64,000 nucleotides of DNA from Patescibacteria group bacterium (GTDB lineage Bacteria > Patescibacteriota > Minisyncoccia > Phycocordibacterales > CAIRYW01), in contig JAZKAJ010000006.1 of assembly GCA_040389185.1 (NCBI GenBank), positions 2,914-66,913 of the forward strand. Reading direction: 5' to 3'. The translations under genes and the position numbers were made by a program. The notes beneath the pieces are model-generated. The model was not told the origin of the DNA and did not search any database. It saw nothing but the letters and a program-made list of their open reading frames with translations. This document shows, in pieces, positions 6,405-35,500 of this stretch; positions within the stretch are counted from its first letter, which is position 1; each line of letters begins with the position of its first letter.

Positions 6405-7676
6405 ATGAAAAAAATAAATAGTTTATTAGATAAAATAGAGATATTTCTCAAAACCGACATACGGTATCTTTTAAGCGGTGGATTTTGGCTGACAGCAGGC
6501 CAAGTCACCGCTTCACTATCATCCTTCCTTTTATCTATCGCATTTGCAAACCTATTATCGAAGGAGACATTTGGTCAATATAAATATGTCATCTCACTTT
6601 TTGGGATCATTGGAGCTTTATCACTTTCAGGTCTTACTACATCGATCACACAATCTGTGGCCCGAGGATTTGAAGGAGTGTTGGTAAGATCATTTTGGAT
6701 GAGTATGCGATGGGGTTGGCTTCTTACCATCACCTCTTTTGGTATTGCTATTTATTACTACACCCTTGGGAATATTCCCTTAACAGTATCGATGATGCTT
6801 GTTGGGGTTTTTAGTCCACTTCTTTATAGCGCATTGTTTTATAAATCTTTCCTTAACGGAAAAAAAGAATTTAAAACTCTTACATTGTATGGAATCTACT
6901 ACAACATCATTCCAGTACTCTGTATGGTTGGCGTTGTATTCTTTACTGACAATGTCAACGCGGTTGTATTCGCCTACCTCTGCTCAAACACACTCATTTC
7001 TCTATATTTTTTGAATCACGTACTCAAGAAATACAAACCGAATAATAAAGTTGATCCCAAGAGCATGATATTTGGAGCGCATTTAAGTTTTGTAAACGTG
7101 CTTGATACTATAGCAACATATTTGGACAAGATACTTTTGTTTCATTTTCAAGGAAGTATTGATCTTGCAATCTACTCCTTTGCCGTTGCAATACCAGAGC
7201 AGATAAGAAGCCTCCTAAAGATTATTCCCTCTCTTGCAATACCAAAACTTGCAGAAAAAACGAACGATGAGATACAAAGAACCGTTTATCATAAAATTTG
7301 GAAGATCTCACTTATTACTCTTCCGATTGCGATTCTCTATTATTTTGCAGCCCCTTTTATTTATACTTATATTTTCCCTCAATATATAGAATCGATCGCA
7401 TATTCTCAAATATTCATTCTCATTATTCTTGTTGAGGGAGGGCTTCCGGGAGCGGTCTTTAAGGCACAGTTAGCTGTGCGAGAATCTTATATTATGAATA
7501 CTGTGGGCAATCTCATACGAATCGGCATGCTCGTTCCTTTTGTTATATTCTTCGGGATCTGGGGAATCGTATGGGCAAGAATCCTTTCCAGATATGCAAT
7601 ATTTTTCATTTCTCTTTTTCTCCTCAAAAAAATGAAAAAAACTCAAATATCTGATAAGATACAAAACACCCTATGA
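6405..7676 (+). CDS. Wzx-like oligosaccharide flippase (polysaccharide biosynthesis protein, MOP superfamily)
   Basis: 423 aa and about 12 TM helices. N-terminal LLSGGFWLTAGQVTASLSSFLLSIAFANLLSKETFGQY is typical of Polysacc_synt proteins. Confidence 0.7.
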   Translation: MKKINSLLDKIEIFLKTDIRYLLSGGFWLTAGQVTASLSSFLLSIAFANLLSKETFGQYKYVISLFGIIGALSLSGLTTSITQSVARGFEGVLVRSFWMSMRWGWLLTITSFGIAIYYYTLGNIPLTVSMMLVGVFSPLLYSALFYKSFLNGKKEFKTLTLYGIYYNIIPVLCMVGVVFFTDNVNAVVFAYLCSNTLISLYFLNHVLKKYKPNNKVDPKSMIFGAHLSFVNVLDTIATYLDKILLFHFQGSIDLAIYSFAVAIPEQIRSLLKIIPSLAIPKLAEKTNDEIQRTVYHKIWKISLITLPIAILYYFAAPFIYTYIFPQYIESIAYSQIFILIILVEGGLPGAVFKAQLAVRESYIMNTVGNLIRIGMLVPFVIFFGIWGIVWARILSRYAIFFISLFLLKKMKKTQISDKIQNTL

Positions 7677-8413
7677 AAGCAATAATTCTAGCCGGAGGTC
7701 AAGCAACTAGACTTCGTCCTATTACACACAACCTGCCAAAGTGCCTCCTAAAGATTGGTAAAAAGACCATTATCGATTTCCAGATCGAGACCCTACAAAA
7801 AAACAATATCAAAGATATTATTATTGTTACTGGATTCAAAGCAGAACTTTTGAAAGAACATATAATAACAAACTATAGTCAGACAGATATTACATTCACT
7901 TTTGTCTTTAATGAAAAGTATGAGACAACACATGCCGCGCACAGTCTCTGGAGCGCAAGGGATTATTTGACCGATACAACGATTTATTTAAATTCAGATC
8001 TAATCTGTGATCCAATGATTATCAAATCAGTCATTGAAAATAAGAACGATTCCGTCACTGCAATACAACAAAATGATTGGGATGAAGAAGAAGTGAATGT
8101 GATCACTGACGAAAACATGAACGTAGTTGAAATTGGAAAACTGATCCCTGAAAAACTTAGTAAAGGAGAATTTATAGGCGCAACAAAACTCAGCTCTTCT
8201 TTTTTGAATAAATTAATTGAGGTTCTAAATGATATGGTTCAAAAAAATGACACAAAGAAATTTGCAGTGGATGCAATAAACAATGTAATACATTCGAAAG
8301 GAGAAAACCTATACGCATTGGATGTATCACATTATGTTGCGATTGAAATTGACACAATTGAAGATTTTGAAAAAGGCAAAAAACTTTGGGAGCAGTACGA
8401 AATCAAGGGTTAA
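7673..8413 (+). CDS. LicC-like sugar/phospho-headgroup nucleotidyltransferase (NTP_transferase family)
   Basis: MKAIILAGGQATRLRPITHNLPKCLL...IDFQIETL closely matches the LicC (CTP:phosphocholine cytidylyltransferase) N-terminal signature. 246 aa. Confidence 0.7.
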   Translation: MKAIILAGGQATRLRPITHNLPKCLLKIGKKTIIDFQIETLQKNNIKDIIIVTGFKAELLKEHIITNYSQTDITFTFVFNEKYETTHAAHSLWSARDYLTDTTIYLNSDLICDPMIIKSVIENKNDSVTAIQQNDWDEEEVNVITDENMNVVEIGKLIPEKLSKGEFIGATKLSSSFLNKLIEVLNDMVQKNDTKKFAVDAINNVIHSKGENLYALDVSHYVAIEIDTIEDFEKGKKLWEQYEIKG

Positions 8414-8422
8414 TTATTATCC

Positions 8423-9286
8423 TTACTGTGGAGTAAGCACAAGATTAAGCCCTGCTTTCATATCAAAATTAAAATCTACCAATCGATAACTTGGAATATT
8501 GAAAAAAAACAAGAAACTCCGATAAGGAATAATAGCTTGTATTTTGTAGTTTGGAGGAAGAATTTCAAAAATACTTTTCTCATTCTCAAATGTTTTTTTT
8601 GTATCGCTTGAAAACTCCATCATGATAGTTGGACGATTTTTCATTAATGTTTCCCGAAGCCCCAAAAGAACTTCTTTTTCAAATCCCTCAACATCTATCT
8701 TTATGAGATCTATTTTATCGATCTTTTGTTCTTTAAGATAAGTATCTCCTTCCACCACCTGCAATTCCAAAGAGTCTGATGAATTTCGATTGTGAGTAAC
8801 AAAAGATCCTGTGCCCTCATTATCTGTTTCTGGCGGATAATAGGTTAAAGTTTGATCCGTACTCCCTAGTGCCAAGGGATGAACAATGATATTTGAAATA
8901 TGATTGTAAGAAATCTTGTCTACAAGTGAAGATCTTACTTTTTCGTATGGTTCAAAAGAGTGAACGGTCTTGCAATACCTCGAAAGAAAAAGTGAATGAT
9001 GGCCAATGTTAGCTCCAATATCAAGACAAATTGGATCCTTGTACTTCAGTGCTACATCTCTCAAAAGATAGAGTTCACTTTTTTCAAATCCACCATAGAA
9101 ATAGACCTGTGAATCAATATGATTGTGAAGTAATCCTTTATAGTGAAATCCAAAAAAACCTACCTCAAATGGACAAGAGGGATTGGTATTAATCAAAAAA
9201 TTTGCTACCCTATACCTAATCCCGAATCTTACCCAATCTTGCCTGCAGAATAAGCGTCCAAATGACAGAAAGAATTTCATATACAA
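8423..9286 (-). CDS. FkbM-family methyltransferase
   Basis: CLDIGANIGHHSLFLS (SAM motif) and IKIDVEGFEKEVL, both typical of Methyltransf_21/FkbM. Confidence 0.8.
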   Translation of the reverse strand: MYMKFFLSFGRLFCRQDWVRFGIRYRVANFLINTNPSCPFEVGFFGFHYKGLLHNHIDSQVYFYGGFEKSELYLLRDVALKYKDPICLDIGANIGHHSLFLSRYCKTVHSFEPYEKVRSSLVDKISYNHISNIIVHPLALGSTDQTLTYYPPETDNEGTGSFVTHNRNSSDSLELQVVEGDTYLKEQKIDKIDLIKIDVEGFEKEVLLGLRETLMKNRPTIMMEFSSDTKKTFENEKSIFEILPPNYKIQAIIPYRSFLFFFNIPSYRLVDFNFDMKAGLNLVLTPQ

Positions 9287-9318
9287 TTACGATAACATTT
9301 AATTAACATTTTTACAAA

Positions 9319-10494
9319 ATGACTCGAATATTTGGCTTTTTAACGGATTGGACTTATTCATTTCTCTCTCACCTCACCCCAAGGAATAAGAATTTGTGGG
9401 TGTTTTGGGGTTGGCACCTTGGTGAAGTAGGAGAACTTTTTGCAGATAATTCAAAGTATTTTTATCTTTATATAAACAATCATCATAAAGAAATACGGGC
9501 AGTCTGGCTGACAGGCTCAAGCGAGACAAAAAAGCGCCTGCAGGCGAAAGGCTTAGAATGCTATCTTTTTTATGAATATAAAGGTGCGCTATCTGCAATG
9601 CTCGCAGGCTTTACAATCATTGATGGACTTATGAGTCGCTCCACTTGGAGATATGCAGGACGAACAAATATAATACAACTCTGGCACGGCAAAGGAATGA
9701 AAAAAGGATTACATCTAAGTCCTTATAATAATTCCAAAAAAAATAATTATTTCATTACACCTCAGCTATTCAAAAGACCGACGAAAATAATAGCCTCATC
9801 AGCATATGCTGGGAAGCTCATGGCATTAATGTTTAATGAACCGATGACGAAGATTATCACAACTGGATTGCCAAGAAACGATGTCTTATTTAAAACTATA
9901 AAAAATAGTGAGGTAGACACGGATCTCGAATTAAAAGAAAGCATCCTCAAAGTAAAACAAGTATGCAAAGGGCTCGTCTTATATGCCCCCACCTTTCGTC
10001 CTGACGGTAAAAACCCATTGGATGCTATCGACTGGGAAGCCTTAAACAGTGATATCAAAGAGGCAAATATATACATCACTGTCTTACTCCATCCAAAATT
10101 TGCCCGCAAAACTCACTCGAAAATGGAAAGTTTTTCAAATATTATCTATGGAAAACCAGGGTTTGATATTTATCCACTTTTAATCAATTTTGATGCACTG
10201 ATAACAGATTATTCATCAATCTATATTGATTATTTACTCCTTGATCGACCTATGATATTTTTTGATTTTGATATTGAGGAATACAAACAAAAAATGGGTC
10301 TTTTTGATGAGTATGCAGAAATGACCCCAGGACCCCATCCAAAAGATCAGAAGGATCTCACTGTCGCAATAAAGGAAGTTATAAAAAATGATACCTTCAA
10401 ATCAGAGAGACAAAGAGTTATGAAACTCCTCCACGAACATACACTCGACGGAAATTCATCCGAAAGAGTATTGAGCGGGATTAAAGGCCTGTAG
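9319..10494 (+). CDS. CDP-glycerol glycerophosphotransferase family protein (TagB/TagF-like)
   Basis: 391 aa. [23 protein letters not shown] and HPKF motifs of the Glyphos_transf family. Confidence 0.8.
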
Positions 10495-11617
10495 CCGCTT
10501 TAGCAATGAGCGCTTCATAGCGCTTTGCAGTTATGCCTATATCATAGTGGCTTGCAGTCTCTATTGCGCACTGACCCATCTCAACTATTTTCAAATAGGA
10601 TCCGTCCATTTTAACGAGTACATCTCTCACACCTTCAGGAGTTCTGTTATCAATAAAATAACCGTTCTTACCTTCACTGATCATTCGGTCAGGACCAGCA
10701 GTTCTCGTTGAAAGGACTGGTAATCCACAAGCAAGAGCTTCAGCGTGCGCAATACCAAAGCCCTCTATATCTGAGGTTGAGATAAAAAAATCTGAGGCAA
10801 TATAATAGCGAAAAATATCCATTTGAGAACCCATCATAAACACCTTACCATTAAGACCGAGATCAACAATTCTTTTTGAAAGAGTTTCTCTTAATGTACC
10901 ATCGCCTAAAATAAGTAATTTATAATCAATATATTCTTTCACAAAAAGATCAAAACCTTCGATGAGTAGTTTCTGATTCTTTTGGGTAGTTAGTCTCCCC
11001 ACATTTATTATCAATCGATCACTATCTTTAAATCCAAGTTCTTTTTTTATTGCGGACTTATTATATGGTTTTATAGTTTCGTTAATTTTTTGAATATCAA
11101 TACCGTTTTGAATCACTTCAAATTTGCTTTCAGAAATGTTTTCCTGTTTTGCAGTAAATTCCTTTACAGTCTCTGAAACTGCCACAATTTTGTAAGTAAC
11201 AAAGGAAAGCCACTTATCAATAAAAATTTCAAAACGGGTCTTTTTGGTGTAGGTATTATGCTCGACAGTAATGATCTTGAATCCTAAAAATAGCTTTATG
11301 ATACGAGTTACGGTGTTAGAGAAAAACAAATGCGATACAACCACGTCTGGGTGAATCTTCCTTAGAGTTCGAAAAAGGGACAACCATCCTTTTATATCTT
11401 TGATGCCCTTCCAAGAAAGTTTTTTTATTTTGATATCTTGAGGAATCAGATCATAGAATGTCTTTTTGCCCTCAAAGGTGATTAAAGTTATCAGGCTATA
11501 GTCGAACTTTTGTCTATCAGCATGATTAAGTACATCCACAATAAGTTTTTGTGCGCCCGCAGCAGTAAAATCATTTATAACTATTACTACCTTTATTTTT
11601 CTATCTTGTTTTTCCAT
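10481..11617 (-). CDS. GT4-family glycosyltransferase
   Basis: Glycos_transf_1 C-terminal domain ([29 protein letters not shown]-x7-E region). Confidence 0.85.
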
Positions 11618-12389: not shown

Positions 12390-13426
12390 ACAATTTTTTG
12401 AATAAGGGATTTTAAACTATGTTGCTCAAGCACTATACTTCGAAGCATCACACCTATTTCTTTTTTGGTTTCCTTATCTAACAGATGGATCTGTTTTATT
12501 TTCTCTGCGAGATCGATTGCATCATTTTCGTTGAACATTAGAATACTGTGCCATTTTTTTGGAAAGATATTTTCATATGACCGGTTTGAAACAAGTGCGA
12601 GCCCCCCGCACGCCATCATCTCAAGAATCACTTTATCAAATGAACCAGTTGGCGTGAGATTCACCAACACTCCATGAGAATTATATATCTCTACTGTTTT
12701 GTTGTTTGGAACAGAACCAGGAAATGATACAAGATTTCGTTCTTCTATTTCCTTTGCTTTTTCTTTCAAGTTTTCAAAATAGCCTTTTTCAGAATCCACT
12801 TTAACAGGACCACCATAAAGATCTGCCTTAAAGGTATCGCTTTCTTTTGAGAGAAGGAGAAGTGATTCAACAAGTATTTCCACTTTTTTAATTGATGAGA
12901 TTCGCCCCAAATAAAGCAAAGGTGAATCAGATCTTTGATCATCATGATTGTCCCTAAAGTAATCTGTATCAATACCAGCAGGCATGATCTCAGTTTTTTT
13001 GAACTTTGCAGTAAATGAAAACTCTGAAGTACAAAATACCCTATCGGAAAGAAATACCGCGAGCTTTGTTTTCCAAGTGCCATTCGGATGATTTCTCCAC
13101 ATGAATATCTTTTTACCCCGAAGCTTCCAAATAAGGGCACCAAGTAGCACGTATTCTTGGTTCATATGTACAAATACTGTGTCATATGTGCTGTTCATAG
13201 AAATGATTCTCTTATAAAAATTTGAAATGTATGAGAACCTTGACTGTTTCGTCTCTTTTCCAAGTGAAAAAACTGGAATCGATTTTGGAAGGCTATTTAC
13301 CCCCTTTTCCAAGCAGATCACAGAAACACTCGATACTTTTTTTTCAAATTCCTCCACCCAACGGATAAAGAATCCTAAAACATCATCATCTTTATCTATC
13401 TTTTGGGTTATAACAAGTAATTTCAT
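12383..13426 (-). CDS. GT4-family glycosyltransferase
   Basis: GT-B fold, EMMACGGLALVSN glycos_transf_1 signature. Overlaps both neighbours. Confidence 0.75.
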   Translation of the reverse strand: MKLLVITQKIDKDDDVLGFFIRWVEEFEKKVSSVSVICLEKGVNSLPKSIPVFSLGKETKQSRFSYISNFYKRIISMNSTYDTVFVHMNQEYVLLGALIWKLRGKKIFMWRNHPNGTWKTKLAVFLSDRVFCTSEFSFTAKFKKTEIMPAGIDTDYFRDNHDDQRSDSPLLYLGRISSIKKVEILVESLLLLSKESDTFKADLYGGPVKVDSEKGYFENLKEKAKEIEERNLVSFPGSVPNNKTVEIYNSHGVLVNLTPTGSFDKVILEMMACGGLALVSNRSYENIFPKKWHSILMFNENDAIDLAEKIKQIHLLDKETKKEIGVMLRSIVLEQHSLKSLIQKIVC

Positions 13427-14274
13427 ATGTTTTCGCCATAGACACCGCGAAGGAGATGTAAATCTTTATGTGTTTTTTTGAGTAATTCAATATTTTTTTC
13501 TTCCATTGCCCTGAGCATTTGTATACCTTTTTCATCCTTTGTGTGTATAGAATAAAACTTTGAAAGTGCGGCGAAATCTTTAATAAAACATTCACCCCCT
13601 GCTCCTCTACCTGATTTGTGTAGTGCATTTGCATAAGTTGGTCCATTATCTGGATCTGCAGATATCGCTTTTTTGATATTTTCATAATCTACACCGAAAC
13701 TTTCTGTCAAATCATGGAAAATGTTTGCCATAAGTACTCGTGCGTATCCAATAGAGTTTCTTGCGTATTTGATAAGCTCAGCTTCTGTTGAGTCGCATAT
13801 AAGCTCAAAAGGTGCTTCAGGAAGGATTTCCATAACCCCTCTTGCAATATCTTTATGCTTTTCATCGTTTAAAGGAATACCAATAATATTTCTCGCAGGA
13901 TTTGAGGCATCATATTTTGCGGTTGCAACAGACAGAAACTCAGGGTTGACCAAAACAACAATATCTTTGAAATCTACTTGGATCTTTTTTAAGGTTCCTG
14001 GTAAAAGGGTTGATTTGATTACGGCAACCTTATCCTTACCCACCAGTTTTAATGCCTCTCTCACAATTGAATCATCAAACTCGCCGTGTTTTGTTGGTGT
14101 AGGAACAGCAACAAAAACGAGATCGCAATCCTTTATCATGTCTTTATTCATCACATACTCCTTTTCCAAGGAATATCTAACCACCGTTAAACCACGCTCC
14201 TCAAAATCATCAGAATAATTCTTACCAATCCATCCCTGTCCTATGAATCCAATTTTTTTATTTTTAAAGTCCAT
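13423..14274 (-). CDS. UDP-glucose/GDP-mannose dehydrogenase-family protein; only the N-terminal NAD-binding and central domains
   Basis: GFIGQGWIG Rossmann motif and catalytic-Cys motif GRGAGGECFIKD. Stops at 283 aa where the next gene starts, so no C-terminal UDP-binding domain is present. Confidence 0.65.
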   Translation of the reverse strand: MDFKNKKIGFIGQGWIGKNYSDDFEERGLTVVRYSLEKEYVMNKDMIKDCDLVFVAVPTPTKHGEFDDSIVREALKLVGKDKVAVIKSTLLPGTLKKIQVDFKDIVVLVNPEFLSVATAKYDASNPARNIIGIPLNDEKHKDIARGVMEILPEAPFELICDSTEAELIKYARNSIGYARVLMANIFHDLTESFGVDYENIKKAISADPDNGPTYANALHKSGRGAGGECFIKDFAALSKFYSIHTKDEKGIQMLRAMEEKNIELLKKTHKDLHLLRGVYGENI

Positions 14275-14293: not shown

Positions 14294-15643
14294 TTATTCT
14301 CCTCCGCTTCCTGGGATGAGTGTGAGCACTTCTTTGATCGGCATACAAAGCTTTTCTGCATTGCCAGCGCTCCCGTCCTCTAGGATCATCTCAGCCACCT
14401 TTGTCATCGCGGGATATGCACTTCGAAGAAGTTGATTAGCATAGATCACGACATTTACTCCCGCTTTTTCTAGTTCGTCCTCAGTGACAGAAGAATAGGT
14501 ACTTGGCACAACAGCAAGCGGAACTCTGTTCTTGAATTTTTTGTACTCTTTGCAGAATTCAAATATTTCCGTCGGCTCCTTTTCTTTGCTGTGAATAAGG
14601 ATCCCGTCAGCACCTGCCTCGATATATGCTTTTGCACGAGTAAGTGCGTCTTCCATACCCTGCTTTAAAATGAGACTTTCTATTCGAGCAAAGATCATAA
14701 AATGATTGGTTACCTGAGCCTTTTTACCCATAGAGATCTTGTAGCAAAAATCTTCAATGCTGTCCTGAATCTGATTTGCCCCTGTTCCAAAAAGTGAATT
14801 CGCTTTAAGACCTTTCTTGTCTTCAATAATAACTGCTGATGCGCCCAATCGCTCCAACGTCTTTACCATAAGTGCAAAGTGTTCTGGGAATCCTCCGTTA
14901 TCCGCATCTACAATCATTGGCTTTGTTGTTACATCAAATATCTGATCGATAGTACTTTGTCTTGAAGTAAAATCAACAGAACCATTATCAGGCTTTCCTT
15001 TTGCAACAGAATCAGTGAGCGAAGAAAGCCACATTCCATCAAATTCTGACGCTTTTTCTTCTTTTGAGATTTTGGTCTTTTCTACAATTCTCCCAGTAAG
15101 ACCATTGTGGACTTCCATAATTCTTATAAGCGGCTTTACAGATAAGTATCTTCGAAGAAGCTTCATTCGTGTCTCAGGTGTAACACCTTGTCCAACGAGC
15201 CCCTCTATAAGATTGGTAGTTGATGGAATACTTTCTATTCGCTTAGGCTCAACCAATTCACCCCCGTATTCATTTAAAATTTCTATTACTTTTTTTCTTT
15301 TTTCTGATTGAACGCTTTCCTTCCAGTCATCGCCATGAACAAAATAATCTGGTTTTAATTTTCGAAGATTTGGCTCAAAATCGTGAACTTCTTGAAGCAT
15401 TACCGAATCAACCCCGACAATACTCTCAATGATCTTCTTTCGCTGATCATAAGTAGATAACGGCACTCTTTTGTATGTAGCTATAGCTTCGTCGCTCAAA
15501 AGCCCGATAACAACTTTCCCGAGTTTTCTTGCCTCATTGATAATGTAAATATGACCATAATGAATAAGGTCCACTGCCATTGGCAAATAAACAACCTTCT
15601 CTTTTTTATCGTTATCCTGGCTAGTTTTTTTAGTCTTTTTCAT
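14294..15643 (-). CDS. bifunctional cytidylyltransferase / phosphoenolpyruvate phosphomutase (Fom1-like CyTase-Ppm fusion)
   Basis: N-terminal HxGH nucleotidyltransferase domain (VVYLPMAVDLIHYGHIYII). C-terminal ICL/PEPM fold with IVDADNGGF and the Ppm-diagnostic EDK-X5-NS motif (VIIEDKKGLKANS). GADGILIHS is also present. Confidence 0.8.
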   Translation of the reverse strand: MKKTKKTSQDNDKKEKVVYLPMAVDLIHYGHIYIINEARKLGKVVIGLLSDEAIATYKRVPLSTYDQRKKIIESIVGVDSVMLQEVHDFEPNLRKLKPDYFVHGDDWKESVQSEKRKKVIEILNEYGGELVEPKRIESIPSTTNLIEGLVGQGVTPETRMKLLRRYLSVKPLIRIMEVHNGLTGRIVEKTKISKEEKASEFDGMWLSSLTDSVAKGKPDNGSVDFTSRQSTIDQIFDVTTKPMIVDADNGGFPEHFALMVKTLERLGASAVIIEDKKGLKANSLFGTGANQIQDSIEDFCYKISMGKKAQVTNHFMIFARIESLILKQGMEDALTRAKAYIEAGADGILIHSKEKEPTEIFEFCKEYKKFKNRVPLAVVPSTYSSVTEDELEKAGVNVVIYANQLLRSAYPAMTKVAEMILEDGSAGNAEKLCMPIKEVLTLIPGSGGE

Positions 15644-15689: not shown

Positions 15690-16622
15690 TTAAACTAACT
15701 CAGCAGTAAAAGTTTTTTTACTTAATAATTCATTGTAGAGCATTGACCACTCTGCACTATATTTTTTAAATTCTTCAACTTCTTTTTCATCCCAGATTTT
15801 CTCTTTGTTATGCCATGGCTTTATGCCCTTTTTCTGCATCTTCTTGATCTCTTTTTCACTCAAGATCGGTGTCAATCCAAACTCTTTTGCCACATTCTTA
15901 TAGTAGCCATAATAATCCTGTCTTGCTTCATTCAATTTAAATATAAAGATCTTCTCTTTTGGAATTTCTTTCAACTGTTCCCAAATATCTTTATTCATCT
16001 TATTTCCCCACCACGCGATCTTTCCGACTCGAGTGAGACCATCCCATTCTCTATAGAATTCTCCGTTAGGCACCAGTCGTCCAAAGAGATAAAGCCAATA
16101 CCATTTCTGTGGAAAGTTAGGTTGAAACCCGAGTGCCATATCGACATTATCTCGCACATATTTGTGCTCAAAAAATCCCTTATTGTAAATCGATTGGACT
16201 GTAAACTTTGGATCATTGATCGCAAAGATGATTCGTTCAGGTCGAAGCAAAGTATTGAGTTCTACAATCCCATGTGAAAAGAAAGGGCTGATAACAAGCG
16301 CAATATCTCCTTTTTTCCAATCTTCAACAATGCCGTGCTTTATAAGCTTTATGATCCCTGCAGTATCAATCGGTAGTTTGTTGTATTTTATGTATCGATA
16401 GAAACATTCCGGCTCAAAATATCTTTCAGTGATTCCTGTTGCATTTGTATGCAAATTAAAAATATCTCCAAGCAAACGTGTGCCAGAGCGAGCCGCTAAA
16501 GTACAAAGAATTAACTTTTTCCCAGCCTGAAGTCCTTTTTCGTATTCCAAATCAACTGATTCAAGTATTTTGGAATCGAGACCTCCCCTATCCCATGAGA
16601 TCAAAAGCTTTCCTATTTTCAT
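15690..16622 (-). CDS. sulfotransferase-fold family protein
   Basis: 5'-PSB-like CTLAARSGTRLL and 3'-PB-like FAINDPKFTVQSIY motifs. 310 aa. Confidence 0.5.
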   Translation of the reverse strand: MKIGKLLISWDRGGLDSKILESVDLEYEKGLQAGKKLILCTLAARSGTRLLGDIFNLHTNATGITERYFEPECFYRYIKYNKLPIDTAGIIKLIKHGIVEDWKKGDIALVISPFFSHGIVELNTLLRPERIIFAINDPKFTVQSIYNKGFFEHKYVRDNVDMALGFQPNFPQKWYWLYLFGRLVPNGEFYREWDGLTRVGKIAWWGNKMNKDIWEQLKEIPKEKIFIFKLNEARQDYYGYYKNVAKEFGLTPILSEKEIKKMQKKGIKPWHNKEKIWDEKEVEEFKKYSAEWSMLYNELLSKKTFTAELV

Positions 16623-16629
16623 AATAAAA

Positions 16630-17760
16630 TTAGATGATGGTGTTTAGTATTAATCTTGCGTCTATGAGGGTCATATTTCTCGGATTATTCTTCATTCGTT
16701 CTATCGATGCTTCCTTGAGAATCAGATCGATATCCACCGGCTTCAATTTATCAAAATTCACCTTAAGTCCTATTGCATTAAAAAGTTCATCTAGTGTTTC
16801 TGATGCTTCTTTTGGGGTCTTAGTGCCTAGTATCTCGACGATCTCATCGATCGTCCCCTTTACATAACTTACTCCCCGAGGATCGTTATTATTTTCTTCA
16901 TTAACCTCGCTATTATATATCAAAATCTGAGGCAGAGTAAGAGATACTGCCTGGCCGTGCGGAATGTTGAAATGGGATGTAAACGGATAAGAAAGGGCGT
17001 GGCAAGCGGTAGTTTTTGAGATATTAATAGCCTTTCCTGCCAAGTGCGAACCTTTTGCTATAATTTCTCGAAGTTTTTGATCTGGTTTTAATACCACATC
17101 TTTCAAATTTGGATATAAAAGAGATAGAGCTTCTCTTGCATACTCTTTTGATTCTTCAGTTGAAGCAACAGACCACAATGATTCAATCGCCTGACAAAGT
17201 GCATCAGCACCTGCCTGTGCCGTAATCTCTGCATTTAAATTTGATGTGAGTAGTGGATCAACGATTGAAATAGTAGGTAAGATCTTTTGATCGGCAAGCG
17301 AATATTTTGTTGTATCAATATAAACCACTGCAAAATGTGTTGCCTCGCTTCCAGATCCAGATGTAGTAGGAATCGCAACAAGCGGCAAGCCATTTGTTGT
17401 TAATTTTTTTTCTCCTTTAATACAATCTTCCAAATCACCCATCTGAAACGAAAGTATATTTACAAGTTTTGCCATATCGATCACACTGCCACCTCCAACT
17501 GCAACAACTATATCAGGAACAAATTTTTTAAACTCTTCTATCCCCTTTTTTACATCTATAATATTTGGATTTGATTTGAAATCAGAGAATTGAAAAACAT
17601 TCTTACCTTGAAAGATAGACTCTAATTCTTTTTCTGCCCCCGATTCTTTGAACGAATTTTTGCCCGTTACAAGAAAGATCCTTTCGCTTTTTAAATTGCT
17701 TAGGACCTCTTCAAGTTTTTTAATGCTACCATTCCCAAAATATTCTACTTGTTTTTCCAT
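16630..17760 (-). CDS. iron-containing (group III) alcohol dehydrogenase; candidate phosphonoacetaldehyde reductase (FomC/PhpC-like)
   Basis: VAVGGGSVIDMAK and a metal-binding His-rich C-terminal half. Sits between Ppd and the Ppm fusion. Confidence 0.75.
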   Translation of the reverse strand: MEKQVEYFGNGSIKKLEEVLSNLKSERIFLVTGKNSFKESGAEKELESIFQGKNVFQFSDFKSNPNIIDVKKGIEEFKKFVPDIVVAVGGGSVIDMAKLVNILSFQMGDLEDCIKGEKKLTTNGLPLVAIPTTSGSGSEATHFAVVYIDTTKYSLADQKILPTISIVDPLLTSNLNAEITAQAGADALCQAIESLWSVASTEESKEYAREALSLLYPNLKDVVLKPDQKLREIIAKGSHLAGKAINISKTTACHALSYPFTSHFNIPHGQAVSLTLPQILIYNSEVNEENNNDPRGVSYVKGTIDEIVEILGTKTPKEASETLDELFNAIGLKVNFDKLKPVDIDLILKEASIERMKNNPRNMTLIDARLILNTII

Positions 17761-17762
17761 TT

Positions 17763-18893
17763 CTAATTATTCAAAAAATTCATAAAATCGTTCTTATTCT
17801 CTAAAGGAGTTCTTGTTGGTCTCCCAAGATCTTTTCTTGCACCAGGTGTTACAAGGATTTCCATAAGAATTGGTCCTTCAAGTTTTTCAATCTCTTTAAA
17901 ATTAACCTTGATGTCATCCTCTGTTTTTGAGCAAAAAACATGTTTGTAATTTGAAGCTTTTGCGATAGATCCAAAATCCATCACTGTTGCGGCTGTCGGT
18001 TGACCACCTACAGAATCGTGCACCTTATTATTAAAGACAATATGTATAAAATTCTTTGGTGCAACCTTGCCCGCAGTACCATATGCACCAAGATGCATTA
18101 TAGATGCGCCATCACCATCAAAACAATATACTTTTTTCGTAGGCTTCGCGATTGCAATACCAAGTGCGATCGAAGATGCGTGACCCATACCTCCAACAGT
18201 GAGAAAATCTCGGTCGTGTGTGTCATTATTTTTTACTCGAAGTTCAAACAGCTCTCTTGAGAGCTTACCTGTAGTACCGACAACGACAGCATCTCTTGAG
18301 ATCAATTCAATAACACTCTTCAATGCATCTTCGCGACTGATTGTGATATCACTTGAAATATTTTTCTTTGATCCTTCGTAGTTTGAAAATGTACCGCTCT
18401 TTACTACAAGTGCATACGGCGCTGAATTCTCTATCATTATTTTATATGCTTCTTGTACAGCAACCTTGGCCTCCTCATCATTATCAGGAAGAATTTTGTA
18501 CGGAACTCCCATTACCTCAAGCATTGAGAGCGTGATCTTTCCTTGTTTTTTATGCTGTGGTTCATCTGGAACCCCTTCTTCACCTCTCCATCCCACAAGC
18601 AAAAGAATGGGTACAGAATATATTTCTGGATCAGCAAGAGAGACCAGTGGGTTTAAGGTATTACCGAGACCAGAATTTTGAAGATAGACAAGGCCGATCT
18701 TTTTTGAGGCAAGATAATATCCCATTGCCAGAGCAACCGCATTCCCTTCGTTAGCAGCAATGATATGTTTATCTTCTGAAACATTATCATTCACAAACCC
18801 GCAGAAATCCTTCAAAAGCGAATCTGGCACACCAGCAAAAAATTCAATATTATTCTCTGCAAGCGCTTCAAAAAATGATTTGGGTGATACCAT
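17763..18893 (-). CDS. ppd: phosphonopyruvate decarboxylase (TPP-dependent)
   Basis: 376 aa, about the size of Ppd. N-terminal FAGVPDSLLKDF and the TPP-binding region GDGASIMHLGAYGT...NN. Next to PEP mutase. Confidence 0.8.
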   Translation of the reverse strand: MVSPKSFFEALAENNIEFFAGVPDSLLKDFCGFVNDNVSEDKHIIAANEGNAVALAMGYYLASKKIGLVYLQNSGLGNTLNPLVSLADPEIYSVPILLLVGWRGEEGVPDEPQHKKQGKITLSMLEVMGVPYKILPDNDEEAKVAVQEAYKIMIENSAPYALVVKSGTFSNYEGSKKNISSDITISREDALKSVIELISRDAVVVGTTGKLSRELFELRVKNNDTHDRDFLTVGGMGHASSIALGIAIAKPTKKVYCFDGDGASIMHLGAYGTAGKVAPKNFIHIVFNNKVHDSVGGQPTAATVMDFGSIAKASNYKHVFCSKTEDDIKVNFKEIEKLEGPILMEILVTPGARKDLGRPTRTPLENKNDFMNFLNN

Positions 18894-30389: not shown

Positions 30390-32504
30390 TTATTTGCCCA
30401 TCAAATATAATTGTTTGATCTGGTCTGAAGTAAGTGCGGTTGTATAGGCACGAACATCATCAATCTCGCCGTCAAAAAAATCTCCGAAACCGCCCCACAC
30501 ATTACATCCAATACTAAATGTGTCAGGATTATCAGTGACATAATTACCGACACTTGCATTTGTTTGAGAAACATTCTGTCCATTAATATATAAAATCTGT
30601 TTTGAACCGTCCCCGACAAAAGCAACATGACTCCATTTATTAAGTGGTGCAGCATCAGCATCAAATAAAATGTTCCCACTCGATTGTGTCCAACCTGCAA
30701 TATTATTACTGCCGTCAAATCCAAATTCAATAGTATCATTCTGTCCAAAAAAACTAGTATGATCATAATTACGTGGGTAAATCCAGCCAGCAATAGTAAA
30801 TGCAGTTGGATTATTAAAGATCACGGCGCTTGTTGTAATACACTGATTACCTGTATTAAAATCAAACGCCTGTCCGATAACTCCAGGTGCGACAGAATTT
30901 TTTTGATCTGCACCAGAAAGGGTCCCGTCATTATTTTCCCCGCTTCTGTCATAAATATCAGCCTCACTACCATTTATCCAATGTGTATCCTTACCATCAA
31001 ACGACCAGAGTCCCTGAAGTCCGTCTGTTATCCGAGAATTTCGTGAATCATTTATTGTTGTATTTCCTCCTGAATGATACAGATTGTTAATCTCATTTGC
31101 TGATAATACACGATCATAGACCCTCACTTCATCAAGATCGCCGTTCCAATAATATGCACTATCAAATCCAAAACCAATACGAGCACTCCCGTTTGCATTG
31201 AGACTTAGAGTTGAACCCGTTCCTCCACCACTTAATACTCCATTAACATATAATTTTATTTCGCCACTTGTTTTTTCACGCGTCACACATCCAGATACCC
31301 ACGAACCAGTATTAACAGTTGCAGTGCTACTAAATGTATAATCTCCTATATTTGAATTACCATCGCCAAACACAAGCTTGCCATTTGAGTCTACCCCAAA
31401 CCCAAAATCATTTGTGACACCGCCCACTTCTGTATCGAGGATTGCCATGCTCTGCCAATGATTAGTACCCGATCCAACAGAAGTAGTTTTGAACCATGAA
31501 CAAATAGTAAAGTCATCAGTCGCAGGTCGTGAAATATCTATATATTGATTGGCGCCATTAAATTCAAATGCTTTACCTATCTTTCCATCCACCGAACCAG
31601 GAGAATTGGATGATGTGCCATTATTTCCTCCGCCACTCACATCATCTACAGTGCTGCCTGAAATTGTGTCTGGTTCAAAAGACCACCAGCCCGTAAGACC
31701 GTCTTTGGTAGGTGAAGTCAGAATTGTTGCAACACTATCAGTATTGCTCGAACGGAGTGCCCTCACTTGACCTGCTGAAAGCGCGCGATTATATACTCGC
31801 ACATCATCAATTGAACCTGAAAAAAATCCAGTATCAGCAGTACAACTCGCTCCTCGCGCAAGTTGTACATAAATAGAATTACCCGCTGCCGCAAAAGTAG
31901 GCTGTGCTGTTGTCGCTTTTAAAACTCCATCAACATACAGCTTAAGTCCCTCTGTGGAATTCCAAGTGGTGACCACATGATGCCAAATATTAGTTGTGGG
32001 TGTATCCTGCTCAGTCGCATATTTTGCAGATCCATCAAAAGAAATTGCAGAAAATTTTCCATCTGTGACAGCAAGAAATGGGATACACCAACCCAAGCCG
32101 TTTTCACTATTTGAGATATGAACAATATTTCCATTTGTTTCTCCGGGGTCTATCTTTGCCCAAGCAGAAATGGTATACGGAGCATCGGCAATACCTAAAC
32201 TTTCGATACTAGAATTGCTTTCGGCATATTGGTCATTTCCATCAAAGGAAAGTGCTTCACCAAACCTTCCTGGTTCAATCCATGAAGGAGGGGTTGCGCC
32301 GTAAAGAGTTCCCGAAACACTATTTCCAGAATTGTCAGCAAGTGTTGTGCCCGTTCCCTCATCAAGTTTCCAATTAAGCATTAATCCTCTATTTGCAGTT
32401 CCCAAAATTTTAACCGCACCATATGCCGAAAGACCGATAAGTAAAAGTGCGACAATAATCGGAATTGGAGTGATTTTTTTTCTCATTGATATTTTATTCT
32501 GCAC
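30390..32504 (-). CDS. secreted protein with three tandem concanavalin-A-like lectin/glucanase (LamG_3) domains
   Basis: Signal/anchor helix PIPIIVALLLIGLSAYGAV. Three repeats, each ending in the LamG_3 signature (FSGSIDDVRVYNRALSAGQV; WNGDLDEVRVYDRVLSANEI; FDGEIDDVRAYTTALTSDQI). Confidence 0.8.
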   Translation of the reverse strand: MQNKISMRKKITPIPIIVALLLIGLSAYGAVKILGTANRGLMLNWKLDEGTGTTLADNSGNSVSGTLYGATPPSWIEPGRFGEALSFDGNDQYAESNSSIESLGIADAPYTISAWAKIDPGETNGNIVHISNSENGLGWCIPFLAVTDGKFSAISFDGSAKYATEQDTPTTNIWHHVVTTWNSTEGLKLYVDGVLKATTAQPTFAAAGNSIYVQLARGASCTADTGFFSGSIDDVRVYNRALSAGQVRALRSSNTDSVATILTSPTKDGLTGWWSFEPDTISGSTVDDVSGGGNNGTSSNSPGSVDGKIGKAFEFNGANQYIDISRPATDDFTICSWFKTTSVGSGTNHWQSMAILDTEVGGVTNDFGFGVDSNGKLVFGDGNSNIGDYTFSSTATVNTGSWVSGCVTREKTSGEIKLYVNGVLSGGGTGSTLSLNANGSARIGFGFDSAYYWNGDLDEVRVYDRVLSANEINNLYHSGGNTTINDSRNSRITDGLQGLWSFDGKDTHWINGSEADIYDRSGENNDGTLSGADQKNSVAPGVIGQAFDFNTGNQCITTSAVIFNNPTAFTIAGWIYPRNYDHTSFFGQNDTIEFGFDGSNNIAGWTQSSGNILFDADAAPLNKWSHVAFVGDGSKQILYINGQNVSQTNASVGNYVTDNPDTFSIGCNVWGGFGDFFDGEIDDVRAYTTALTSDQIKQLYLMGK

Positions 32505-35500
32505 TAGGCTCTGGCACTTGAGATGATGGATCAGGTGTTAATTGTTCAGGATTAGGTGCCGGATCTTCGATTGGAGTTGGATCAGGTGTTGGCGCGTTTT
32601 CAGTTGGCTCTACGACCTCAGATGTTGTAGACCCTTCGTCTAAAGAGTTTACATCTTGATTTGAAGATCCACTATCTGATTCAGATGATGAATTTTCATC
32701 TGGTATAGAAATCATGTCTGGAGTAGTCGATGCATCATTCTTTGGTACAGGTGTTACACCTGCAGAATGAACCATTTGAATGAATTCTGCTTCAGTCACA
32801 CAAGTATCTCCAACACAAAGCTTATGGGTTGTAAATTGATCCGTAAATCCTGAAAGTTTGTCAGCAATTTCTTTGACCGCTTTTACAAGAATTGCAGTTA
32901 TCTTCTCATATCGCACTCCATGAACTGTCGTTCCATCTGCTTCAAGAGTTACAAGTCTTGGATCAACCGCATTTACTTCTTCCGCAATAAATCCAAGCTG
33001 TTCACCGCTGTAATTTGGGTTTGATTGAAGTGCACCATTGAATTCTGGCTTATAGAAGAATGAAACGGGATTCAATTTCATAAGTTCAGTCAAACCAGAA
33101 TCATCGGTCAATGAATTTATATTATCCTTAAATCGAAGAGATGAAGAACTACAATCACTGTTTGATCCAACAACTAATTCTCCGCTTGAATTGATACAGA
33201 GATATGAAAGCTGACCTTCATCTGATACTGGCAAGTTTTCCATTCGAACACCTGTATTTTCAATCCCTCCTTCTCCATCATCTTCGCCATGGACTGTGAG
33301 AATTGAAAGTCCTGCGATTGATGCCGTGTATGATTCGACTGTTCCTTGTGATGCATCACCAGAAATTGGAAGGTCAACCCACGATACTGCGCCCGCATCT
33401 TCAGCAAATGTGAGAGCCCCCATAGAAAGATTATCTATACTTGTTACTCCTGTTGTACTGTTATAAAGGAATGATCCGTTACCTATTGAGACATCACCAG
33501 TATTGTAGGCAATCCCTCCATCAAAATCCGTCCATTGACTACCTGTGAAGAGCTGTCCGTGCTGATAAAGATTGCCGCCGAAGTTAATATCTCCGTTTAC
33601 ACCACCTGTAAAATCAGTCAGTGTAATATTTGCTGAATGATGAGTAGGGTGTATTTGAGGATTATTCTCATCATCAGGAAGAATATTCCATACATTACCC
33701 GAAGCGCCAGCACTGAGCTGTTCAATAATAATATTATTACCAACTCTAGTCGCGCTAAAATATCCACCATTATTAATAACATTTACAGTTGTATTAATAG
33801 TTTCAGAAAGTGTGTCCCCGATTGGTATTGGATATGCTCCTGAATTGGTGTCATTATCATCAAATTCATAAGCATGCATGCTATTTTGACTATCAAAAAG
33901 AAGGAACGCATCTCCATCTATTACTTCACCAATTGTAAGTGTTGCTGTTGCTTTAATTGCTCCAACATCAAGATTAAAAGCCGGATCGTTTGTGCCGATG
34001 CCAACATTGCCACCATTAAATAGTGCGGAATAATTTTTTGGAGCATTGAGCACTACTATACCGTTATCACCATCAGCCACAAACAAAACATCCTTGTATG
34101 CTGCGACCGCATATGAATCTCCATCAGTTGTTCCGTAACCAATAGTTATAGGATTATGAGGGTATGAAATATTTATCGCATAGACACTGTCTTCCGCACC
34201 ATCAGCAACATAAGCAATATTTCCAGAAATAGTGATTCTTGTATTGTAGCGCCAGTCACCAATAGAAGTGCTACCAACTTTAACCAAATTTTCTGGATCG
34301 GACGCATCAAATACAACAAACCCTTCTCCATCATCAGTATCACGGGTGGCATAGACATAATTTCCTTTTGTTGCAATACCGCCATCAAAATAATCTGCTT
34401 CGGAAGGGTATAATGACATTTGTTCAAAATCAGTTGGATCAGTAATATCTACTACCTCGATTTCAGTGTCTTCCTCTAGATATGCGTAGTGTCCATTATC
34501 TGAAATTGCGATTCGGTAAGCACTATCATCTGCTTGATAAGGTTCAGAGAAAAACACTGGATCACCCGAATGTCCATGACTGATAGCAGATACATTGAGA
34601 GCATAGAAATAACCGTTATTATCTGTCACGTACACTATTCCATTTTTAACTTGAATATCTTCAATTTGTGCAGGACCTTCGTCAGATACACCAAGTAGTA
34701 TTGGAGTCTGTGAGGTGTCATTCACATCAAGAACATAAACAGAATTCCCAGCCGCAACATAAGCAATATCACCCACAACACGAACGGCAGTTGGTGTTAC
34801 GTTATCTCCTTGGAAATCATAGTAGGTGAGAAGTGTCTCATCTACGGGATCGGTAATATCAAAAATATCGAGATGGTAACCATCGACAGAATAGAGTTTG
34901 TTGCCAGATACCACAAGATCCATAACCCCAGTTTGTACATCGTGATATCGAGTGATCTGTGAAAATCCAACACCTGCACTTCCACCAACAACATCGAGTC
35001 CAGCATGCGGTGTATTGGTACCTATACCTACATTGCCGTTAGTATAATCAATTCCATCTTCATTTGTATTCCACTTCGAATCACCACCGGCAATATCAAT
35101 CCATTCACCTTCATTATCAGTAGTATAGTACTGCATCGTCTTCGTATCTGTATTGAAAATAATTTGATTGTTGGTCGGAGATTCTATATTATCACGCTCC
35201 ATCGTAGTAAATGATTGCATATCACCTCCCGTACAGTTACCGAGATTTTGCATACAAACAGTATCAATGCCGCCCATTAGTGATTCAAGTGATGGCAATT
35301 GGTAGCCATAGTGCGCATCATCATCGCCAGATAGGAAAAAAGATGCGGATTCAGTATGTCCAGGATCACTCGTTGTGAATTTGATTCCTGTTGCATCTGT
35401 AATTTCACCCACATCAGCACCAATAGAAACAGAGACTGGTGCATTCGAAGCCATTATCGTAAGTCCAGGCGCAGTTCCCGTCTCTTCAGATCTCATGAGT

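Follow-up and report, generated by a model that had tools for sequence, protein, structure and literature searches.

Probable coupling of a LicC/PntC-type nucleotidyltransferase with a TagF-like phosphotransferase, apart from the nearby phosphonate operon, in a surface-glycan locus of a Patescibacteria group bacterium

The stretch of DNA analyzed here (the window, 64,000 nucleotides of contig JAZKAJ010000006.1 from an uncultured, ultrasmall Patescibacteria group bacterium, assembly GCA_040389185.1) begins with a single large surface-glycan locus, which spans positions 1 to 21,000 according to the Pfam and NCBIfam annotation and holds a nucleotidyltransferase (hereafter NTase), a TagF-like phosphotransferase and a phosphonate operon. 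An earlier note, made from the sequence alone, had described the first two genes as a LicC-like enzyme and a glycerophosphotransferase placed opposite the phosphonate operon, and had suggested that the two proteins form a second route by which a phospho head group is activated and transferred. The NTase and the TagF-like gene lie in the following context.

6405 to 7676, plus strand: Wzx-type (MOP) flippase (PF01943, E = 1.5e-20)
7673 to 8413, plus strand: nucleotidyltransferase of the COG1213 (LicC/PntC/IPCT) type, 246 amino acids (PF00483, LicC/PntC profile, AlphaFold2 model and Foldseek)
8423 to 9286, minus strand: FkbM-family methyltransferase (TIGR01444, E = 1.5e-33)
9319 to 10494, plus strand: phosphotransferase of the TagF family (PF04464), 391 amino acids (Glyphos_transf, E = 2e-56, 192 bits)
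10481 to 11617, minus strand: glycosyltransferase of family GT4 (PF00534, E = 3.9e-34)

The NTase, whose protein sequence starts with MKAIILAGGQATRLRPITHNLPKCLL, matches NTP_transferase (PF00483, E = 4.2e-21) and PF12804 (E = 2.7e-11) in Pfam, and its best solved homologue by sequence is LicC of S. pneumoniae (1jyk, E = 4.5e-16), with PntC (6pd1) at E = 4.3e-12. A family profile obtained from 26 orthologues matched LicC (1.8e-28) and PntC (7.8e-28) from end to end, whereas the sugar-1-phosphate nucleotidyltransferases were matched by the same profile in the N-terminal half only (residues ~1 to 115), at about 1e-17. Furthermore, the AlphaFold2 model (predicted local distance difference test, pLDDT, 95) was placed by Foldseek equally near PntC (template modeling score, TM, 0.84; root mean square deviation, 2.2 Å) and LicC (TM 0.83), both with E = 6e-19, and below them came IPCT (9e-16) and the RmlA-type enzymes (~1e-15); in the profile comparison as well as in Foldseek, the IPCT structures 4mnd/2xme, and also 4jd0, outrank the sugar enzymes. 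NCBIfam holds no equivalog for this protein, the best models being Arch_glmU (91 bits, cut-off of 292) and AglF (74 bits), both matched at full length, and the scores against the sugar-1-phosphate models are far under their curated cut-offs (292 to 400 bits); the name assigned by the Prokaryotic Genome Annotation Pipeline (PGAP) is phosphocholine cytidylyltransferase family protein. The residues expected to bind the nucleotide and the metal are conserved (G9, R13, K23, D109, E225, and D227), and the clade has a signature of its own, consisting of N107, W136, E138, E139, K156, E166, and D200. Thus, the LicC likeness noticed before was borne out by sequence, profile and fold. The placement proposed in the earlier note, among LicC or PntC enzymes, gave a different answer, since in a neighbor-joining tree the NTase belongs to neither clade but to its own (25% identity with LicC and 26% with PntC), and neither the profile nor Foldseek clusters it with the glucose-1-phosphate thymidylyl- or uridylyltransferases.

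The members of COG1213 act on phosphocholine, 2-aminoethylphosphonate (AEP), inositol-1-phosphate, phosphoglutamine and phosphoglycerate (PMC6697681, PMC12275187), and the NTase fits this group in that it resembles several of its members from end to end and is adjoined by a transferase of the kind that consumes a cytidine diphosphate (CDP)-activated non-sugar head group. Its sister clade (35 to 40% identity), which comes from Ignavibacteriota, Bacteroidota and others (loci L021 to L084, including metagenome-assembled genomes of Calditrichia and Nitrososphaeria), is preceded immediately by a CDP-alcohol phosphatidyltransferase gene (PF01066) in 54 of 62 loci and, farther upstream, by a class-I/II aminotransferase gene in at least 16; the set looks like an uncharacterized pathway in which a CDP-amino-alcohol is used to make a lipid or head group. 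Another relative of the NTase is followed by a LicD gene. With CDP-alcohol transferase and LicD genes as neighbors, it follows that the adjoining gene regularly consumes a CDP-activated head group in this family.

As regards the TagF-like protein, the match to PF04464 is full length, with residues 38 to 388 aligned on positions 23 to 365 of the 367 of the profile and a score far above the cut-off of 22.1 bits. The motifs of the CDP-glycerol glycerophosphotransferases that the earlier note had pointed out, LWHGKG (residues 121 to 126), YAPTFR (222 to 227) and ITDYSS (295 to 300), are conserved at 90% or more in 20 orthologues, with the exception of W122. The best solved homologues are TarL (8va1, 9.4e-23) and TagF (3l7m, 1.5e-14); in particular, H123 in LWHGKG aligns with the histidine of the WHG motif of TagF, H258 aligns with the histidine of the MHPF motif of TarL, and both are conserved at 90% or more in the same orthologues. 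Two active-site histidines are essential in the characterized enzymes, that is, H444 and H584 in TagF and H450 and H576 in HS1.09 (PMC11924219). The protein is under the NCBIfam equivalog cut-offs for TarF (100 bits versus 550), TarL (99 versus 1000) and TarB (59 versus 500).

The comparison of the two genes drew on 80 genome loci in which relatives of the NTase are encoded, together with metagenome contigs (loci are designated L plus a number); 20 of these loci, including the window, are from Patescibacteria, and about 10 kb on each side of the pair was covered. A TagF-like gene on the same strand follows the NTase gene in all 20 Patescibacteria loci, and in 16 of the 19 loci other than the window the two genes overlap or are separated by 6 bp at most. 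The distance is 905 bp in the window, where the FkbM gene, in the opposite orientation, splits the pair; its start is more likely the ATG at 9280 than the TTG at 9286. The window is the only locus with an FkbM gene at this position, other positions being found in L005, L007 and L090, and in the phosphoramidate-like locus L116 such a gene adjoins the NTase. A scan for promoters and terminators around the insertion gave six promoter-like sites versus 3.8 ± 2.2 expected, and no terminator.

Moreover, when homologues of the TagF-like protein were searched for, at least seven clusters of proteins of ~635 amino acids came up that combine a complete NTase with a complete TagF-like domain in one chain. 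The full-length fusions (P0222, P0223, P0227, P0231, P0247, P0248, and P0270) cover residues 1 to 245 of the window NTase and 15 to 388 of the TagF-like protein, the N-terminal half of P0270 is 60% identical to the window NTase, and the positions of the fusions in the neighbor-joining tree point to at least two lineages; further full-length fusions, as well as larger multidomain ones, occur in a library of 1.84 billion representative proteins. Fusion and invariant adjacency are strong evidence that the NTase makes the donor used by the TagF-like enzyme, and we consider it very probable that the two are coupled and that the pair is independent of the phosphonate operon; the second route put forward in the earlier note found support, as one separate from that operon. 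In L015, a gene for a LigT-like 2H phosphoesterase (~250 amino acids) lies between the NTase and TagF-like genes, and in L001 it lies beside the pair (9189 to 9926); a speculative role for this enzyme would be the processing of a cyclic phosphate that arises as a by-product from a CDP donor with a vicinal diol.

Two further genes frame the pair. The stop of the Wzx gene overlaps the start of the NTase gene by 4 bp, which places both in one operon and ties the pair to a Wzx/Wzy-type pathway; a Wzx gene is present upstream of the NTase in 14 of the 20 Patescibacteria loci, directly adjoining in about half. On the other side, the GT4 gene (10481 to 11617) is convergent with the TagF-like gene, with an overlap of 14 bp. 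A gene from this GT4 family is convergent in all 20 loci and immediately downstream in 19, an FkbM gene lying between in L005, and the best solved homologue of the window GT4 is the glycosyltransferase domain (residues 888 to 1103) of the TagF-like polymerase Cps3D (E = 1.6e-21). This GT4 is a conserved third member of the module.

The phosphonate operon lies entirely on the minus strand, opposite the pair as the earlier note had stated, and includes the following genes.

14294 to 15643, minus strand: Fom1-like cytidylyltransferase domain of the HxGH type (residues ~17 to 150) fused to phosphoenolpyruvate mutase, PepM (PF01467, PF13714, TIGR02320)
15690 to 16622, minus strand: unannotated protein with a sulfotransferase fold, 310 amino acids (AlphaFold2 model and Foldseek)
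16630 to 17760, minus strand: Fe-dependent alcohol dehydrogenase (PF00465, E = 4.9e-44; TIGR03405, 185 bits, under the cut-off)
17763 to 18893, minus strand: phosphonopyruvate decarboxylase, Ppd (TIGR03297, 473 bits)

The fusion scores E = 1.3e-13 for PF01467, E = 1.4e-55 for PF13714 and 389 bits for TIGR02320, and it contains the PepM motif EDKxxxxxNS as EDKKGLKANS. No AEP transaminase was found in the operon. From the presence of PepM, Ppd and the alcohol dehydrogenase and the lack of that transaminase, the product is expected to be 2-hydroxyethylphosphonate (HEP), following pathway logic and a published classification (PMC8942020), and the Fom1 architecture is the one that cytidylylates HEP (PMC6697681). 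The fused PF01467 domain, which is not a TagD equivalog (49.8 bits versus a cut-off of 165), is the member of the TagD superfamily that had been overlooked when the earlier note found no LicA, LicD or TagD in the window. The rest of that statement stood: LicA, LicD, a CDP-alcohol transferase and GpsA were not found by Pfam on most window open reading frames (ORFs) of at least 150 amino acids, nor were LicD, a CDP-alcohol transferase, GpsA or a second TagD-type cytidylyltransferase found by tblastn on the whole window. As for the lic genes, LicA, LicB and LicD were not found in the scanned window ORFs (by Pfam, tblastn being aimed at LicD only), and none of them turns up repeatedly among the annotated genes that flank the pair in the other 19 loci.

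The gene for PepM lies within 10 kb of the pair in 3 of the 20 Patescibacteria loci (the window, L018, and L020), and it was absent within this distance from both fusion loci that were looked at (L090 and L091). The nearest copies of the window NTase come from pepM-less loci (62%, 60% and 58% identity); identity with the copies of L018 and L020 is 43 to 44%, while PepM is 79% identical among the same loci. The three NTase copies from pepM-positive loci are polyphyletic, being located in different subclades of the neighbor-joining tree, and no conserved column in either protein is specific to pepM-positive loci. Among the candidate residues, there were none in the TagF-like protein, and the single one in the NTase (M149) was discarded because its position is variable. 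Counting from the NTase in the window, PepM is encoded by the seventh gene, neither fused to it nor within five genes of it. Thus, the phosphonate genes have the character of an accessory cassette, inserted at the distal end of a minus-strand glycosyltransferase operon whose architecture is otherwise conserved.

We could also notice that L001 encodes, at 16815 to 17291, a stand-alone cytidylyltransferase of 158 amino acids, 61% identical to the window domain and retaining the interdomain linker; this locus is without PepM, Ppd or the Fe-dependent alcohol dehydrogenase and looks like a decayed phosphonate cassette. In the window, the cytidylyltransferase-PepM gene is adjoined by a gene for a UDP-glucose-dehydrogenase-like protein of 283 amino acids (13423 to 14274, minus strand), which has the NAD-binding and central domains and is without the C-terminal nucleotide-sugar domain; the same position is kept in L001 (72% identity) and L012 (46%). 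This protein was considered as a possible substitute for GpsA; by sequence, it is only a truncated UDP-glucose dehydrogenase.

The nature of the head-group alcohol (X; its phosphate, X-P) can be approached from the binding pocket of the NTase. D105 and D192 of LicC and E104 and E196 of PntC contact the amine of the substrate (PMC6697681). In place of LicC D105 and PntC E104, the window NTase has N107, in both the hidden Markov model (HMM) and the MAFFT alignments, and the whole clade linked to TagF-like genes has Asn (or His) in this column and Ala, Val or Ile at position 199, which replaces LicC D192 and PntC E196; the sister clade linked to aminotransferases keeps Asp and Glu in columns 107 and 199. 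The substrate cannot be read residue by residue from the LicC/PntC pocket, N107 alone being robust, because the two alignments disagree on LicC D192 (V199 by MAFFT, D200 by HMM) and W136 (W136 by MAFFT, E140 by HMM), and Y190 of LicC, which together with W136 makes up the aromatic box of the choline pocket, likewise corresponds to F197 or A198, depending on the alignment. Judging from these sequences, the NTase lacks at least one, and probably both, of the amine-contacting acids, which favors a neutral head group. To our knowledge, all characterized PF04464 enzymes take CDP-glycerol or CDP-ribitol. A polyol phosphate is therefore our best guess for X, at somewhat less than even chances, and we tentatively propose that it is of the glycerol-phosphate type rather than choline, AEP or HEP.

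If so, the NTase would condense CTP, the presumed nucleotide, with the small phospho-alcohol X-P to give CDP-X and pyrophosphate. CDP-X would serve as donor to the TagF-like enzyme, which, by means of H123 and H258, would attach the X-phosphate to a hydroxyl group of a glycan that is lipid-linked or still growing, with release of CMP. The convergent GT4 would probably glycosylate the product of this step, so that the trio might build a teichoic-acid-like glycosyl-X-phosphate decoration or repeat, in the manner of the two domains of Cps3D-type polymerases, and export of the glycan would fall to the Wzx flippase, whose gene is translationally coupled to that of the NTase. Taken as a whole, a self-contained CDP-X module, with X probably a neutral polyol phosphate, that works independently of the phosphonate operon is the reading that we favor, with moderate confidence.

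Several observations weigh against it. In the window, the FkbM insertion would have cost the pair its co-transcription. Across the 20 loci, no enzyme making X-P, such as a kinase or dehydrogenase, is consistently linked to the pair, and the glycerol-phosphate module of L089 brings its own GpsA, so that glycerol-3-phosphate may not be freely available, which weakens the case for glycerol phosphate as X. The alignment of the C-terminal half to LicC depends on the method and leaves room for a choline-type pocket. Furthermore, pepM, tagD or gpsA could lie beyond the ~10-kb flanks in those genomes, and the neighbor-joining tree of the NTase carries no bootstrap support. With regard to precursor supply, a fusion of a methyltransferase with a protein-kinase-like domain (458 to 465 amino acids) is encoded just upstream of the NTase in three loci, including L003 (7584 to 8981) and L007 (7677 to 9053), and this fusion is a possible enzyme for the synthesis or modification of the head-group precursor.

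The most serious alternative keeps the coupled module and makes X an amino-alcohol or an acidic compound, such as phosphoethanolamine, phosphocholine, serinol phosphate or phosphoglycerate, which would amount to a new class of TagF donor. The closest characterized relatives of the NTase do act on phosphocholine and AEP, the PGAP label points the same way, and COG1213 enzymes also take phosphoglutamine, inositol-1-phosphate and phosphoglycerate (PMC12275187); class-I methyltransferases, a possible source of phosphocholine, occur in 19 of the 20 Patescibacteria loci, with the methyltransferase-kinase fusions of L003 and L007 as further candidates, and no gene supplying glycerol-3-phosphate accompanies the pair, whereas 2- and 3-phosphoglycerate are glycolytic intermediates. 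However, the loss of amine-contacting acids extends across the TagF-linked clade, while the sister clade keeps them, the acid-rich pocket (E138, E139, E166, and D200) argues against a carboxylate such as that of phosphoglycerate, and LicA, LicB and LicD were not found in the scans described above. No characterized PF04464 enzyme that we know of uses such a donor, and we regard an amino or acidic X as unlikely. That the NTase is an ordinary sugar-1-phosphate nucleotidyltransferase (RmlA-, GalU- or GlmU-like) feeding the glycosyltransferases of the locus is extremely improbable: the full-length matches to Arch_glmU and AglF are the best that NCBIfam offers, but they are far under the cut-offs, LicC and PntC lead by about ten orders of magnitude in the profile search and by three to four in Foldseek, the sequence matches to sugar enzymes are confined to the N-terminal half (the structural alignment is full length but scores lower), and the partner genes across the family are transferases of the CDP-alcohol type.

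The earlier note had regarded the CMP-phosphonate made by the neighboring operon as a plausible substrate for both enzymes, in the sense that a PntC-like NTase would cytidylylate HEP or AEP and/or that the TagF-like enzyme would transfer the phosphonyl group. It is true that PntC is the top structural neighbor of the NTase, that CMP-HEP closely resembles a CDP-alcohol and HEP is the expected product of the operon, that a pocket deprived of its amine-binding acids would suit a hydroxyl-bearing substrate, that the pair and the operon are within 6 kb of one another and that clusters with two nucleotidyltransferases are known (PMC6697681). The idea nevertheless lost most of its ground, and we now hold it to be very unlikely, as pepM is missing within 10 kb from 17 of the 20 loci and from both fusion loci, the pepM-positive copies are polyphyletic and share no specific residues, and PepM already has a Fom1-type cytidylyltransferase domain, which, with or without PepM, travels with the 310-amino-acid protein in loci that have neither the NTase nor the TagF-like gene. 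The same association bears on the possibility that the two genes are not coupled at all, the TagF-like enzyme using CDP-glycerol from the PepM-fused domain or from a TagD encoded elsewhere and the NTase feeding some other transferase. Every characterized TagF system is indeed supplied by a TagD- or TarI-type enzyme (PMC11924219, PMC12275187), and a PF01467 domain is encoded only 4 kb away and as a stand-alone copy in L001; on the other hand, the two activities are joined in single polypeptides, the pair is adjacent in 20 of 20 loci versus 4 of 20 with the cytidylyltransferase domain, and the latter pairs with the 310-amino-acid protein instead. Uncoupled genes therefore appear still less probable than the use of a CMP-phosphonate, and the self-contained CDP-X module is retained.

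The 310-amino-acid protein (15690 to 16622) has no match in Pfam or NCBIfam, but its AlphaFold2 model (pLDDT 89) was related by Foldseek to TPST2, TPST1 and other sulfotransferases (E ~ 2e-5). Homologues were seen in L001, L018, L020, L088, L089 and L092 to L125, several of which have neither an NTase of the TagF-linked clade nor a TagF-like gene. Their genes are preceded by a set of genes for making a donor, with nothing in between in most loci, and this cassette takes the following forms.

Cytidylyltransferase-PepM, Ppd and Fe-dependent alcohol dehydrogenase: the window, L018, L020, L088, L092, L093, L096, L101
GpsA and TagD-like cytidylyltransferase: L089
Cytidylyltransferase alone or with asparagine synthase: L001, L097, L100, L104, L105
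Phosphoramidate set like Cj1418, Cj1417 and Cj1416: L111, L116
Adenosine phosphosulfate (APS) kinase and ATP sulfurylase: L108

A homologue follows the cytidylyltransferase, directly or past precursor genes, in the window, L001, L018, L020, L088, L089, L092, L093, L097, L100, L104 and L105. A motif resembling the 5'-phosphosulfate loop (GRSG) is kept throughout the family alignment. The arginine of a motif resembling the 3'-phosphate-binding one (R-x-P...S) is present in L108, L111 and L116, which are linked to the sulfurylase or phosphoramidate genes and whose expected donors, 3'-phosphoadenosine 5'-phosphosulfate and CDP-phosphoramidate 3'-phosphate, carry a 3'-phosphate (PMC11800397). It is also found in L112, L122, L124 and L125, whose donors are not assigned, and it is replaced by Asn, Ala or Thr in every cytidylyltransferase-linked member (N136 in the window). 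From gene context and this motif, the 310-amino-acid protein is a candidate phosphonyl or glycerophosphoryl transferase and, for the transfer of HEP from CMP-HEP, a better candidate than the TagF-like enzyme. It is possible to hypothesize, albeit with the odds against it, that the locus holds two parallel head-group systems, one running from the NTase to the TagF-like enzyme and the other moving HEP from CMP-HEP onto the glycan by means of the 310-amino-acid protein; a bolder variant, in which the TagF-like enzyme accepts CMP-HEP as well, seems very doubtful. The steps after Ppm have been called enigmatic (Rice et al. 2019, PMC6697681), and separating the pair from the phosphonate operon directs the search for a phosphonate-to-glycan transferase to this protein.

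The remaining genes of the surface-glycan locus are a Wzy_C-type ligase/polymerase, a GT-C enzyme (PMT_2), a GT2 glycosyltransferase, GtrA, two polysaccharide deacetylases, six GT4 enzymes in all and several methyltransferases. Upstream, the GT2, GtrA and GT-C genes form a set presumably similar to the systems that glycosylate teichoic acids outside the cytoplasm. The GC content of the window is even, at 35 to 40%. Farther along, an ORF of 2427 amino acids (32494 to 39777, minus strand) is followed by a protein of 704 amino acids with three Laminin_G_3 (concanavalin-like) repeats; the two, which together occupy 30390 to 39777, are presumably giant surface proteins. A protein of ~205 amino acids with a weak P-loop (AAA_17) match pairs with a class-I methyltransferase of ~250 amino acids in 9 to 10 of the 20 glycan loci (for example, L006, 12996 to 13607, and L009, 7246 to 8010); the window is without such a pair.

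Published work on CMP-AEP transferases, on the teichoic acids of Patescibacteria and on LicC in combination with TagF-like enzymes yielded nothing that bears directly on the pair, and that on the C. jejuni "CGPTase" and on MeOPN transferases gave nothing informative on the fold of the transferase; we could find no characterized example of a LicC/PntC-fold cytidylyltransferase paired with or fused to a TagF-type transferase. LicC (1jyk), the best match by sequence in the Protein Data Bank and tied for the best by structure, has the same fold, N-terminal signature and metal ligands as the NTase. It differs in belonging to a separate clade and in D105, here Asn, and D192, here probably Val; different from the LicA/LicB/LicD system, moreover, the partner transferase is of the TagF and not of the LicD type, and no such lic genes were found in the scanned ORFs. 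PntC of Treponema denticola (Tde1415; 6pd1/6pd2) shares with the NTase the GE(F/L)xG motif, a Lys motif in the C-terminal half and a phosphonate-making locus, but lies outside the clade, the AEP-contacting E104 and E196 are changed to N107 and V199, and the NTase orthologues are mostly from pepM-less loci.

Closer parallels exist for the arrangement of the genes. In the pneumococcal capsules of serogroups 15 and 23F, Gtp2 is a nucleotidyltransferase presumably of another type than TagD. It makes CDP-2-glycerol for a dedicated glycerol phosphotransferase, WchX, and this system, which is possibly the nearest functional precedent (PMC1391919), needs Gtp1 and Gtp3 for glycerol-2-phosphate, of which no equivalents accompany the pair. 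In IPCT-DIPPS of Archaeoglobus (4mnd) and CpgD/CpgA of Caulobacter, the product of a COG1213 enzyme is used by a neighboring or fused transferase, as proposed here (PMC12275187), and IPCT-DIPPS is a natural fusion like those of the NTase with the TagF-like domain. In both, however, just as in the sister clade, the head group is consumed by a membrane enzyme of the CDP-alcohol phosphatidyltransferase type (PF01066) and not by a TagF-type enzyme of the GT-B fold; CpgD/CpgA was thus rejected as a COG1213-TagF precedent, CpgA being a CDP-alcohol transferase of the PgsA type.

The known TagF systems, that is, TagD/TagF and TarI-TarJ/TarL of Bacillus and Staphylococcus, Cps3D, and HS1.09 of C. jejuni with the GCT HS1.11, share with our proposal a cytidylyltransferase that makes a CDP-alcohol; as in TagF and Cps3D, a PF04464 enzyme of the GT-B fold with two histidines would transfer the alcohol phosphate and free CMP, next to a GT4-type partner. 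Examples of PF04464 enzymes using CDP-glycerol or CDP-ribitol have been described (PMC11924219, PMC8262930). Different from TarF, TarL and TarB, the TagF-like protein is short, with a single domain, and far under the equivalog cut-offs, and, different from the TagD/TarI systems, the activating enzyme belongs to COG1213 rather than to the PF01467 or IspD type and is sometimes fused to its partner. A lineage of Patescibacteria would thus couple a LicC/PntC-fold enzyme with a TagF-type one where the known systems use TagD or TarI, and either CDP-glycerol-like donors are made there by a nonhomologous route or TagF enzymes accept a class of donors not yet described, which bears on the cell surface of organisms not yet grown alone.

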